A stretch of DNA of 64,000 bases, from the IMG/VR virus record IMGVR_UViG_3300028392_001993, positions 32,001-96,000 of that record, one strand, 5' to 3'. The DNA comes from a virus. The position numbers and the translations under genes were made by a program. The notes beneath the pieces are model-generated. The model did no database searches. It saw only the letters and a list, made by a program, of their open reading frames with translations, and was not told the origin of the DNA. Shown one piece after another: positions 12,890 to 27,627 of this stretch. Within the stretch, counting starts at the first letter, position 1; each line of letters opens with the position of its first letter.

Positions 12890-13069
12890 ATGAGCCGGAC
12901 ATTGATCTGGGTGTTGAGTTGGAGTGTGTTAGGACCAGTGCCTGAGTCGGGCGAACAAGCCAAGTTCAAAACTCAAGCAGAATGCGAACAGGCTCGAGTT
13001 CAAAAGCGTGAAGAATACCAGGCACAGAAAAAACAGATTGTGGCTAGTTGTCACCAGAGTACCAAATAG
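12890..13069 (+). CDS. 59-aa hypothetical protein, absent from the ORF track
   Basis: After late promoter and AGGA RBS; F.T.AEC motif. Confidence 0.6.
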   Translation: MSRTLIWVLSWSVLGPVPESGEQAKFKTQAECEQARVQKREEYQAQKKQIVASCHQSTK

Positions 13070-13070
13070 T

Positions 13071-13099
13071 TTGACATCAAATCAATTTTGTGGTATAAT
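13071..13099 (+). promoter_or_regulatory. Sigma70-type promoter of the tmRNA gene
   Basis: TTGACA-N17-TATAAT with overlapping TAAATA. Confidence 0.8.
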
Positions 13100-13105
13100 A
13101 AATAC

Positions 13106-13441
13106 TTGAACAGCGTAAACTGTTACTGAGAAAAGGATTCAAGACCCGGGGGCAGTGCCCGGCAGGTCCACCATAAGCATACTTAAATCTCTACAAAACC
13201 GAAAGGTTGGGATCAGGGCTGGTACACCGGATTACTCTAGGGAAACCTATAAGTGCGGATAGACCATAGTATGCTTTTGATGGGCCTGACACAGGATCGA
13301 TTGGGTCAAGAGTACAAGTAATGGCGCTCGGTAGGCGATGACCGTTAATCAAGCAAAACAAGTATCTGCAAACGATGATACATACCTCTTAGCCGCAAAC
13401 GCCTAAGAGCGAGGCAGTTATGCCTTGTAACCAAAAATAGC
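13106..13441 (+). ncRNA. ssrA: Circularly permuted (two-piece) tmRNA: acceptor piece ~13106-13173, intervening segment 13174-13281, coding piece from 13282, tag ORF 13368-13406 (ANDDTYLLAANA*)
   Basis: CAGGTCC-A-CCA pairs with downstream GGGCCTG including G3:U70; T-arm CCGGG-GGCAGTG-CCCGG; GCA resume codon with an AND...LAA tag. Confidence 0.9.
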
Positions 13442-13466
13442 AATAGGGACTTCGGTCCCTATTTTT
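13442..13466 (+). terminator. Intrinsic terminator after tmRNA
   Basis: AATAGGGAC-TTCG-GTCCCTATT-TTT. Confidence 0.85.
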
Positions 13467-14601: not shown

Positions 14602-14766
14602 ATGCAACATGCTATCAAATGTGACAATTGGGGAAAACCCGGCAAAAATGAAGTGGTGAGATTCATGCCTGTTAACTTGGCCAGGTTTAGAAACTGCCCA
14701 GACTGTGATCGTAAACGAATCACTGCTTGCAAAGATCCTGCTTGCAATCGAACCCGAAAGCCTTGA
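14602..14766 (+). CDS. 54-aa Cys-rich (CPDC...C...C) micro-protein, absent from the ORF track
   Basis: AAGGAG RBS; MQHAIKCDNWGK...NCPDCDRKRITACKDPACNRTRKP. Confidence 0.65.
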   Translation: MQHAIKCDNWGKPGKNEVVRFMPVNLARFRNCPDCDRKRITACKDPACNRTRKP

Positions 14767-14926
14767 CTCTTATACAATTCTCATATATAATACACTTATG
14801 AAACAAACAACTACAATCGTTACAATCGTTCGCTCAGAACATGAGTGGGATTGCCATTGGGGGCTTTGCCTGTAATACGAAAGTACTACCCTGCAAAGAC
14901 CCTCCACTTCGGAGGGTTTTCTTTTT
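14763..14926 (+). promoter_or_regulatory. Attenuator-like unit A: promoter, leaderless 25-aa leader ORF (14798-14875), antiterminator and terminator (14895-14926)
   Basis: TTGACT-N17-TATAAT; leader MKQTTTIVTIVRSEHEWDCHWGLCL; GGGGGCTTTGC (14859-14869) complementary to GCAAAGACCC; terminator GACCCTCC-ACTTC-GGAGGGTT followed by a U-tract. Confidence 0.7.
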
Positions 14927-14931
14927 AGTGC

Positions 14932-14960
14932 TAGACCATAAATTGAAACTCTGCTACAAT
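14932..14960 (+). promoter_or_regulatory. Second sigma70-type promoter upstream of the ncRNA/tRNA block
   Basis: TAGACC-N17-TACAAT with TG extension. Confidence 0.55.
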
Positions 14961-23992: not shown

Positions 23993-24202
23993 TTGACACA
24001 CAAAGGTAAATAAACTATAATTGATACTATGAAAACGACACTTTGTTTATTGCAACCCAAGAATATGTTCAGTCAGACATCTGCCTGGTCACACGCCTAT
24101 GGTCGCTTGACAAGCATTCTAGGAGACACAGGGTCTTAAATAGTACGCAATCGTATCTTATTCAAAGACCCTGGAACTAAAAACTCCGGGGTTTTTCTTT
24201 TT
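23993..24202 (+). promoter_or_regulatory. Attenuator-like unit B: promoter, leaderless 36-aa leader ORF (24029-24139), antiterminator and terminator (24165-24202)
   Basis: TTGACA-N17-TATAAT; leader MKTTLCLLQPKNMFSQTSAWSHAYGRLTSILGDTGS; CAGGGTCTT (24129-24137) is a perfect complement of AAGACCCTG (24165-24173); U-tract. Confidence 0.75.
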
Positions 24203-24215
24203 AAGGAGAACTTAG

Positions 24216-24263
24216 ATGACCGAAGAAGAATATTGGAAGTGGATTCAAGAGAACGTGCAATAA
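24216..24263 (+). CDS. 15-aa micro-ORF (MTEEEYWKWIQENVQ)
   Basis: AAGGAG RBS immediately after terminator B. Confidence 0.45.
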   Translation: MTEEEYWKWIQENVQ

Positions 24264-24269
24264 ACGTTC

Positions 24270-24455
24270 AAAGTGCAACAGGAAACGCGGTCCTGTGCCT
24301 CACTCAAAACCGGCACAAACGGGCGGCCTCGGGGATGGCTTGTGTTCTTGTACATAAAAAAATCCGAGCGTATTAAAGCATTCTCTATCTGCAAGGAGAC
24401 AAGTGGGTTCATCCATGAAGAGTGCTTTAGTACACGCATTCCAAAGAGTGCGTAA
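24270..24455 (+). ncRNA. Structured non-coding tract including stem-closed element E6 (24370-24433)
   Basis: GTATTAAAGCATTCT/AGAGTGCTTTAGTAC helix; further hairpins ACAGGA/TCCTGT and ACGCATT/AGTGCGT. Confidence 0.5.
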
Positions 24456-25055: not shown

Positions 25056-25132
25056 GGCTCCGTAGTTCAGTCCGGCAGAACGTTGGTCTCCAAAACCAAA
25101 TGTCAGAGGTTCAAATCCTTTCGGGGTCGCCA
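25056..25132 (+). tRNA. trnW-CCA: tRNA-Trp (CCA)
   Basis: TTGGT-CTCCAAA-ACCAA, CCA end. Confidence 0.9.
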
Positions 25133-25152
25133 ATGTTTATAAGTATGCTATC

Positions 25153-26187
25153 GTGCTAAAACTTAATTATTGTGAATTTTACATAACCAATGTATGCAAT
25201 TTGAACTGCTCGCGTTGCAATAGATTTAACAACTATGCGTTCTCCGGACATTATAAATGGAACGAGTATGCTGAGGTATACAAAAGTTGGTCAGAAAAAC
25301 TAGATGTTGGCAGAATTGGCATCTTGGGCGGTGAGCCTATGCTCAATCCCGAATTTGATGTATGGGTTGAAGAAATTGCTAAACTTTGGCCCAGGGCCTC
25401 CATATTGATTATAACCAATGGAACTCAATTTCACCGTTGGCCTATGTTGTATAAGTTGCTAGAAAAATATCAAGGCAGAGTCAGAATTGATATTAATCGC
25501 CATGATATAAATGCTGAGGCGGAAGTAGTTCGCAATGTTGAACAATTTTTTCCCGGAGATTACAAAAAGTTTTATGTCAATGACGGGTATTACACACAAG
25601 GCCCTGACCATGTTAAGCATTTTAATTTTGCAGATAACGGAATAAAATATGAGGTTTGGGAAGACCAAACATACAAACTTGCATGGAGAGATCACAATCA
25701 GATCTTTGTTAGATATGGTCTTGCAAATACATTTAGTAAGATACCAATAGAACGTTATGATGATCGAGTTAAATTAGTTTATTGGAGTGATCCAACCGCC
25801 GCTATATCTATTTGCGGTGGCAAAGAATCTCATCATTTTCTCAATGGTAAACTTTACAAATGTAATGTCTCTGCAATATTACCAAATTTTATCAAGCAAT
25901 TTGATGTTGCTATGACAGATCAACAAAAAGAGTTAATTGAATCTTATGAACCAGCAGAAATAACATGGAACAATGATAAATTAACAGAATTTGTTGAAGG
26001 GTTACGGCAGACTCGATGTATCGAGCAGTGTCGGTTATGTCCAGATGTGCTAGATGCAAAAGAGTTTCAAGCAGGTATTAAAAAGGTACATATAAAAAAA
26101 ATACAGAATTTGGAGAGTGAGAAGCATTGGCGACTTCAGGAGACTGTAAATCTTCCACCTTACGGTATACGGGGTTCGAATCCCTGA
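25153..26187 (+). CDS. Radical SAM protein; reading frame runs into tRNA-Tyr
   Basis: CNLNCSRC, LGGEP, ITNG, C-terminal C..C..C. Confidence 0.85.
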   Translation: MLKLNYCEFYITNVCNLNCSRCNRFNNYAFSGHYKWNEYAEVYKSWSEKLDVGRIGILGGEPMLNPEFDVWVEEIAKLWPRASILIITNGTQFHRWPMLYKLLEKYQGRVRIDINRHDINAEAEVVRNVEQFFPGDYKKFYVNDGYYTQGPDHVKHFNFADNGIKYEVWEDQTYKLAWRDHNQIFVRYGLANTFSKIPIERYDDRVKLVYWSDPTAAISICGGKESHHFLNGKLYKCNVSAILPNFIKQFDVAMTDQQKELIESYEPAEITWNNDKLTEFVEGLRQTRCIEQCRLCPDVLDAKEFQAGIKKVHIKKIQNLESEKHWRLQETVNLPPYGIRGSNP

Positions 26188-26197
26188 CTCTCCACCA
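26112..26197 (+). tRNA. trnY-GUA: tRNA-Tyr (GUA)
   Basis: GGAGA-CTGTAAA-TCTTC, long variable arm, CCA. Confidence 0.88.
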
Positions 26198-26205
26198 AAT
26201 AGTTG

Positions 26206-26234
26206 TTGACACAACCGCACGTTAACTATATAAT
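26206..26234 (+). promoter_or_regulatory. Sigma70-type promoter
   Basis: TTGACA-N17-TATAAT. Confidence 0.75.
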
Positions 26235-26242
26235 ACTATAAT

Positions 26243-26332
26243 GGAGACGTGGCCGAGTGGCCGATGGCACCGGATTACTAACCCGGCGAGGTAGCAATAC
26301 CTCCGTGAGTTCGAATCTCACCGTCTCCGCCA
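26243..26332 (+). tRNA. trnS-ACU: tRNA-Ser with rare ACU anticodon
   Basis: Ser-type GGAGACG acceptor, long variable arm, G73, loop TTACTAA. Confidence 0.85.
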
Positions 26333-27339: not shown

Positions 27340-27606
27340 ATGGCTAAACTACTGATAGTTACCTGGATCCCAGGCAAAGACGAATCTAAGAATCAAAAGT
27401 CAGAAACAGCAAGAAATATCAAACTAGGTATGATGTGTGTTAAGGGCAAAGTAAATCCTTTTGATTTTAAAGTAACAGACAAATTTACCACACAACGACG
27501 TTGGCGGGATCAAGAATCAGTAGACGAGTACATCAAATTTCTCTACGAATTAGAAACAAGATATGGTGGCCGGTTGGTCAAAATTCAAGTCAAAGATGTT
27601 GACTAA
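27340..27606 (+). CDS. Hypothetical protein
   Basis: AAGGA RBS, 88 aa. Confidence 0.6.
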   Translation: MAKLLIVTWIPGKDESKNQKSETARNIKLGMMCVKGKVNPFDFKVTDKFTTQRRWRDQESVDEYIKFLYELETRYGGRLVKIQVKDVD

Positions 27607-27627
27607 ACTGTGCAATCACAGTATAAT
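27599..27627 (+). promoter_or_regulatory. Sigma70-type promoter
   Basis: TTGACT-N17-TATAAT. Confidence 0.7.

Follow-up and report, generated by a model that had tools for sequence, protein, structure and literature searches.

Why and when phages use their own tRNA genes is a long-standing question. It takes a specific form in the DNA examined here, where a short unit of promoter, open reading frame and terminator (module B) stands in front of the main tRNA array of a phage: does this terminator control the supply of phage tRNAs, and to what would it respond? The window, i.e. the whole stretch of 64,000 nucleotides that was analysed, comprises bases 32001-96000 of a 178-kb record from IMG/VR. 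As this record is estimated to be about half complete, the DNA originates from a giant phage. The window holds 23 tRNA genes as well as a permuted tmRNA. An earlier note had interpreted module B and a similar unit farther upstream (module A) as leader-peptide attenuators and had proposed a general translation-surveillance switch, which turns on the phage tRNA supply upon depletion of any host tRNA.

Organization of module B and its sister module A

Module B starts with a predicted sigma-70-type promoter on the plus strand (23993-24021), which comprises the -35 hexamer TTGACA (23993-23998), a spacer of 17 nt and the -10 hexamer TATAAT (24016-24021). The match to the consensus is complete (12 of 12 positions), and only one other such site was found in the 18 kb scanned. 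In seven other records with a B module the two hexamers are found at the same place. The leader frame (24029-24139, plus strand) consists of 36 codons followed by the stop codon TAA (24137-24139). Its ATG at 24029 lies 7 nt past the -10 hexamer and is not accompanied by a Shine-Dalgarno sequence. Due to this short distance, the mRNA probably carries no leader at all or a leader of a single nucleotide. The frame shows no codon run for a single residue. Instead, 18 residue types are distributed over the 36 codons, while the leader of module A uses 15, and together the two leaders cover all 20. Compared to the phage's own genes, 18 types in 36 codons correspond to P=0.13, which is not significant for a single module.

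The last codons of the frame overlap the antiterminator strand CAGGGTCTT (24129-24137, plus strand), the final T of which is the first base of the stop codon. This strand is a perfect 9-bp complement of AAGACCCTG at 24165-24173 in the 5' arm of the terminator. Between the antiterminator strand and the arm, an apical hairpin TACG-CAAT-CGTA is located (24144-24155, plus strand), which, according to the predicted fold, is enclosed by the antiterminator helix as part of its loop. Most modules carry a hairpin of unrelated sequence at the equivalent place. The intrinsic terminator (24164-24202, plus strand) is formed by a 12-bp stem (24164-24196) with a loop of 9 nt, followed by the tract TTTTTCTTTTT up to 24202. 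With a predicted energy of -13 kcal/mol it is among the few strong intrinsic terminators in the 178-kb record.

The description of these parts in the earlier note was largely accurate. The promoter, the ATG without a Shine-Dalgarno sequence and the 36-codon frame are all present at 23993-24139, the hairpin after the stop codon was confirmed, and a re-count returned the same numbers of residue types (18, 15 and 20). Its caveat that this diversity barely exceeds chance agrees with the P value given above. The perfect complement of 9 nt to the terminator arm is present as well and, with a shift by one base, occupies 24129-24137.

Module A (14763-14930, plus strand) comprises a promoter, a frame of 25 codons, an antiterminator and a terminator, and is located upstream of tRNA-Glu and tRNA-Asp. 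The claim that both units share their architecture and a terminator core held in a direct comparison of the parts: both carry AAAGACCCT ... GGGTTTT(T)CTTTTTA at the terminator. The likeness is limited to the promoter type, the switch core and the terminator, and a global alignment over the full length is meaningless. Immediately behind the terminator of module A, an extended -10 promoter is located (14932-14960, plus strand; TAGACC, 17 nt, TGnTAYAAT), which is conserved in relatives. This promoter precedes a structured non-coding region, which is followed by tRNA-Glu. Among the matches listed, a promoter-like site was found within about 110 nt after 23 of 27 A modules. Since A modules are trailed by a promoter of their own, the switch can do no more than raise transcription above a basal level there.

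Related modules in other giant phages

Searches of phage records by blastn and tblastn with the module and its neighbouring protein gave no match, and searches with the flanking proteins returned no related loci in IMG/VR. A search with a peptide profile found only three relatives, all of which were already known. Related modules were found by DNA-pattern scans of IMG/VR. After de-duplication, at least 56 distinct modules were obtained, at least 28 of them of the A type and at least 28 of the B type. At least eight giant-phage records (100-345 kb, several of them 95-99% complete) contain exactly one A and one B module each, and in the same order. In these eight records, module A precedes a block that starts with tRNA-Glu (in two records tRNA-Ser and then tRNA-Glu), and module B precedes the main array. 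A ninth record, a fragment of 12 kb, comprises an A module only, again before tRNA-Glu.

The pairing of antiterminator strand and terminator arm is common to all of these modules. For module B, the duplex was calculated to -16.4 kcal/mol, compared to a mean of -7.8 kcal/mol after shuffling of the upstream sequence; only 1 of 200 shuffles reached the observed pairing value. In all 56 modules among the matches listed, the duplex lies between -13 and -22 kcal/mol, while 98 unrelated IMG/VR terminators with the same arm motif showed -6.8 +/- 2.7 kcal/mol (Mann-Whitney p=4e-12). Likewise, an upstream complement of at least 8 nt was found in only one of about 100 unrelated terminators with the arm motif AAAGACCC ... 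GGGTTTT.

Covariation was determined for eight B modules. For the antiterminator, 91.7% of the cells are paired and compensatory changes occur at 2 of 9 pairs, a modest covariation to which few independent lineages contribute. For the terminator, 100% of the cells are paired, with compensatory changes at three pairs. As an example, the arm AAGACCC occurs together with GGGTCTT, compared to the arm AGGACCC with GGGTCC. While the GGTCTT core of the antiterminator strand forms Gly-Ser codons in this module, it forms Gly-Leu codons in many other B modules as well as in the A modules. Since the same core is found in different reading frames, it is assumed to be conserved as RNA.

Conservation of the leader frame

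In 19 modules tested, the leader frame contains no stop codon in 661 codons, compared to 46 and 42 stop codons in the two other frames. In shuffled sequences each frame was open by chance in 5-25% of the cases, and the frame of this module in 14%. Furthermore, changes in leader length between relatives comprise whole codons. Judged from these sequences, the leader frame appears to behave as a translated frame. The search for related phages that had been suggested earlier, with intact frames and antiterminators as the expected result, thus returned the frame in 19 of 19 modules tested and the antiterminator pairing in all 56 modules listed.

The data also bear on whether the arrangement is accidental, i.e. 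whether an open frame and a 9-nt complement have come to lie between an ordinary promoter and an ordinary terminator by coincidence. Taken singly, the features are indeed only moderately improbable, as can be seen from the 14% of shuffles with an open frame and the P of 0.13 for residue diversity. The combination, in contrast, recurs in at least 56 diverged modules and is absent from the 98 control terminators, which makes a chance origin extremely improbable.

The position of the start codon is less uniform than the frame itself. In 48 of 56 modules among the matches listed, the ATG lies 5-10 nt past the -10 hexamer. The remaining 8 of the 56 carry a leader of 30-48 nt before the ATG, and those inspected have a Shine-Dalgarno sequence of the AAGGA type. 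In some lineages, a leader of 48 nt together with a Shine-Dalgarno sequence thus takes the place of the 5'-terminal AUG. The term leaderless, as used originally, describes this module and is typical of the family, but does not apply to all members. Since either a leaderless or a Shine-Dalgarno start is present, the conserved property seems to be the access of ribosomes and not the leaderless state as such.

A different picture emerged for the encoded peptide. The variable sites are distributed over the three codon positions as 35/42/48 in B modules and 44/36/44 in A modules and therefore show no third-position bias. Such an even spread is in line with a frame that has to be read but whose product is of minor importance, and it speaks against a small protein with a function of its own. 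Conservation was seen at several positions of the peptide (K, M, W-S and G-S). They overlap the RNA elements, and they could also reflect a function of the peptide.

A self-contained small gene has also to be considered, in which a leaderless mRNA encodes a functional peptide of 36 residues (for example a regulator or a precursor for the many radical SAM enzymes of the phage) and ends at its own terminator. The tRNAs would then be transcribed by constitutive leak or from other promoters, and the complement would tune terminator strength or mRNA stability. The few peptide positions that are invariant among the eight B modules fit this explanation, as does a radical SAM gene 1 kb downstream in this phage, and a unit reaching from promoter to terminator would give an abundant short transcript. 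Nonetheless, the peptide evolves fast and without third-position bias, and the conserved core near its C-terminus lies in different frames depending on the lineage. The radical SAM gene is absent at this place in the relatives, where module B directly adjoins the tRNAs. Moreover, a small gene would leave both the distance between stop codon and terminator arm and the codon/tRNA tracking in one window of the leader (see below) without reason. Altogether, we regard such a gene as rather improbable. A RiPP precursor, a more specific candidate suggested by the large number of radical SAM genes, was dismissed because of the missing third-position bias and the non-conserved neighbour.

Folding of the leader transcript

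In module B, the terminator arm begins 25 nt past the stop codon, which overlaps the antiterminator strand. Across the family, the stop codon precedes the arm by 17-34 nt (median 22.5), despite frame lengths of 19 to 53 codons. Based on this geometry, a ribosome at the stop codon is predicted to cover the antiterminator strand and the loop and to leave the arm free. Folding of the growing transcript in the absence of a ribosome gave the antiterminator as soon as the arm was made, and this structure persisted to the end. When positions 24122-24151 were blocked, the predicted fold was the terminator.

Within the frame, a further hairpin (CAG..CAG / CTG..CTG; 24069-24088, plus strand) was predicted, which is a candidate pause or anti-antiterminator element. 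It is found at the same place in 8 of 8 B modules with energies of -5.4 to -11.6 kcal/mol, while the interiors differ. Its 3' strand CCTGG is similar to the 5' arm of the terminator and may alternatively pair with CYRGG at 24114-24118 (5 bp). Both the hairpin and this alternative pairing are weak and show no compensatory changes. A clear anti-antiterminator (1:2 pairing) was not found in the B modules, and a pause-site consensus past the in-frame hairpin was sought by eye without success. Without a clear anti-antiterminator, an untranslated transcript is predicted to read through, unlike in the trp attenuator.

The abundance of alternative CCAGG/CCTGG pairings in this region would also be compatible with an untranslated structured leader or a small RNA, for example a T-box-like riboswitch that binds a ligand or tRNA, in which the frame is incidental. 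An action of the terminated transcript in trans is also conceivable, as has been reported for rnTrpL (PMC6614838). Compared to this, the folding of the whole transcript is not exceptional (z=-1.6). In the window, Rfam at the gathering score found no leader family and no T-box, but only tRNAs and the tmRNA. In E-value mode only terminator-like matches far below the threshold appeared, and again no T-box. A structured RNA would also not account for a frame that is kept in every module tested, or for the lineages that gained a Shine-Dalgarno sequence, and it is considered very unlikely.

Genes behind the terminator

Directly after the T tract, the first read-through unit (24203-24263, plus strand) starts with AAGGAG (24203-24208), followed by a frame of 15 codons (24216-24263). 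The 15-codon peptide is conserved in the closest relative listed (L039), and other B modules also show a Shine-Dalgarno-led frame directly after the terminator. The adjacent stretch (24264-24440, plus strand) is conserved and non-coding and comprises GGGCGGCCTCGGGGATGGCTT and then a stem, here called clamp, both of which occur in relatives, too. The clamp loop of the closest relative listed holds ATG-TAG, and in the phage studied here this place is occupied by a gene of 212 codons. This gene therefore looks like an insertion into the clamp.

The first genes that would be gated by the terminator (25056-26197, plus strand) are tRNA-Trp (25056-25132), the radical SAM gene (25153-26187) and tRNA-Tyr (26112-26197). 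The frame of the radical SAM gene overlaps tRNA-Tyr by 76 nt. The order of the next tRNAs had been given as Trp, Tyr and Ser, which is correct (25056, 26112 and 26243). The tRNA-Ser (26243-26332, plus strand) has the unusual anticodon ACT, while relatives have GCT at the same position of the array.

Between 24203 and 25056, no consensus-like promoter was found. Strong internal promoters were predicted at 26206, which is the next consensus site, and at 27599, in line with the caveat on downstream promoters that had been raised before. Accordingly, only the first genes would depend wholly on read-through. Transcription from both internal promoters (26206-26234 and 27599-27627, plus strand) is predicted to start (A-T-G) 1-2 nt ahead of a tRNA gene, so the primary transcript would begin near the mature 5' end of that tRNA.

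The location in front of tRNA genes is a property of the family as well. Among the matches listed, 22 of 23 B modules with enough flanking sequence are followed by a tRNA at a distance of at most 2.5 kb (median 328 nt). For 18 of these 22, the region from the terminator to the first tRNA is free of consensus-like promoters, and in two complete relatives the next such promoter is found only past the 17th tRNA of the array.

Apart from the two modules, the window contains a permuted tmRNA of the two-piece, alphaproteobacterial type (13067-13444, plus strand), which was identified with 108 bits for tmRNA_permuted and points to a possible alphaproteobacterial host. At position 13071, a perfect sigma-70 promoter begins.

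Codon content of the leaders and the downstream tRNAs

If the leader reports on tRNA supply, its codons might be related to the tRNAs encoded behind it. In the case of this module alone, the codons read by its own tRNA block amount to 63%, compared to a genome average of 62%, and are thus not distinctive. For whole leaders of the eight closest genomes listed, the match was not significant for B modules (p=0.35-0.48) and borderline for A modules (p=0.015-0.04). A signal emerged only with a wider, de-replicated sample, which was clustered at 70% or 50% peptide identity, and when the codon position was considered. In this sample, whole A leaders matched their own block with 0.33 compared to 0.27 for the blocks of other phages (p at most 3e-4), and whole B leaders with 0.64 compared to 0.60 (p about 2e-3). 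Long neighbouring genes at the same loci showed no difference between own and other blocks, and the leaders exceeded them by 7-8 points.

The signal was concentrated in one part of the leader. For codons -15 to -3 before the antiterminator, the values were 0.74 compared to 0.64 in B modules (p about 3e-4 to 9e-4) and 0.47 compared to 0.34 in A modules (p at most 1e-4). These bins of codon positions were chosen post hoc, the permutations leave some shared ancestry, and some blocks end with the locus. Codons at or after the antiterminator showed no own-block signal (p 0.46-0.95). The codons with the signal are those at which a ribosome could stall without covering the antiterminator. In module B it corresponds to a presumed sensing window at 24083-24121 (plus strand), which covers codons 3 to 15 upstream of the antiterminator and includes A-W-S-H-A-Y.

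Single residues point in the same direction. In the eight closest genomes listed, Tyr occurs in W-S-H-A-x only where tRNA-Tyr is present in the B block. B leaders lack Cys codons and AGY-Ser codons exactly where these tRNAs have moved to the A block. Both observations are suggestive. Altogether, the codon tracking across the family fits a sensor of tRNA supply.

Proposed mode of action

Taking together the architecture, the mutually exclusive pairings, the conserved frame and the location before tRNA genes, module B is probably a ribosome-operated leader-peptide transcription attenuator, which would serve as the 5' control region of the main tRNA operon. From the sequence comparison, we infer that the frame is translated, that its translation is coupled to transcription and that termination is conditional, and we also infer the physiological trigger.

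According to this model, the host RNA polymerase would start at the strong promoter, and the transcript would begin at or next to the AUG of the 36-codon frame. If no ribosome is located late in the frame when the terminator is made, positions 24129-24137 would pair with the 5' arm once it emerges. This pairing would block the terminator hairpin and allow read-through into the 15-codon frame, the 212-codon gene, tRNA-Trp, the radical SAM gene, tRNA-Tyr and beyond. A ribosome that keeps pace and is at or near the stop codon would mask the antiterminator strand, which would permit formation of the terminator and give a transcript end at about 24196-24202. In short, an arrived ribosome would mean stop, and a late or absent ribosome would mean go. 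Slow decoding in the sensing window would then lead to more tRNA transcription, by which the slowdown is relieved. This would correspond to a negative feedback on decoding capacity.

Part of the data could also be explained by a fixed and partly leaky terminator, a kind of valve, with a constant read-through that is set by the antiterminator strand, independent of translation and with a frame that senses nothing. For the full leader, the antiterminator is the favoured structure in the predictions made in the absence of a ribosome, from which a substantial default read-through would be expected. In the case of the A-type modules, the trailing promoter implies that tight control is not essential. 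Such a valve, in contrast, provides no explanation for the open frame spanning the region, for the constant spacing between stop codon and arm, or for the codon tracking in a single window, which is absent in the neighbouring genes. For these reasons it appears unlikely, and the ribosome-operated attenuator is preferred.

Compared to the translation-surveillance switch as originally proposed, this reading retains the architecture, the pairing and the synteny and adds the codon tracking in the family. The generality for any host tRNA is not supported, since it rests on the residue diversity of the leader (P=0.13 for this module). Induction of module B by anticodon nucleases, which had been mentioned as an example, is pure conjecture.

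Comparison to known attenuators and significance

The proposed attenuator resembles the enterobacterial leaders trpL, hisL, pheL and leuL as well as the multivalent thrL and ilvL. As in these, a short promoter-proximal frame is combined with a terminator and with an antiterminator that involves the 5' arm of this terminator and excludes its formation, a ribosome at the stop codon would mask the antiterminator, and the upstream codons relate to the controlled product. Unlike in the enterobacterial leaders, the controlled genes would be tRNA genes instead of genes for biosynthetic enzymes, and the module is encoded by a phage. Further differences are the missing codon run, the usually 5'-terminal start without a Shine-Dalgarno sequence, the lack of a clear 1:2 anti-antiterminator in our searches and the lack of a match to an Rfam leader family.

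A component of the decoding machinery is controlled in a comparable way in Escherichia coli, where the pheM leader of pheST attenuates transcription depending on tRNA charging. The pheST attenuator comprises a run of Phe codons, controls a synthetase and is chromosomal, while module B would control tRNA genes and is phage-encoded. T-boxes share with module B a leader with terminator and antiterminator that reports the tRNA status and controls genes for translation supply. They bind uncharged tRNA directly and are untranslated, in contrast to the conserved frame of module B, for which no T-box match was obtained. In pyrBI and pyrE, the read-out is the distance from the polymerase to the first ribosome. 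There, the frame runs through the terminator and a close ribosome prevents termination. Since the frame of module B ends before the arm (17-34 nt in the family), its polarity would be opposite to that of pyrBI and pyrE.

Another known system is the upstream-ORF attenuator of whiB7/wblC in actinobacteria. Stalling leads to antitermination in this system, and the coding sequence of the ORF determines which shortages are sensed (PMC10274678). It is activated upon knock-down of numerous tRNAs and synthetases as well as amino-acid pathways and is thus a broad sensor of translation stress (PMC10274678). Module B is proposed to resemble it in sensing many kinds of stalls. In contrast to module B, the whiB7/wblC attenuator controls a chromosomal transcription factor, its ORF is enriched in alanine, the sequences are not related, and the product does not restore decoding capacity.

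In the literature searched, leader-peptide control is described for amino-acid genes, while no description was found of attenuators before tRNA operons or phage tRNA arrays. If the proposed mechanism is true, leader-peptide attenuation would be extended from amino-acid and synthetase genes to tRNA genes. A compact and mostly leaderless sensor for many codons would also be reusable as a genetic part.

According to one current view, phage tRNAs replace host tRNAs that have been destroyed by defence nucleases (PMC10264068). The present data allow a wider but tentative proposal for giant freshwater phages, which we consider possible but somewhat doubtful: each tRNA block may be under its own feedback of decoding capacity, and the window of about 13 codons may sample the codons of this block. 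In this way, the phage could sense when host tRNAs are lost through starvation, tRNA-cleaving defences or codon mismatch, and could supply precisely those that are lacking. If this holds true, the phage would measure decoding capacity and dose its own tRNAs accordingly, a behaviour that would be accessible to reporter assays.
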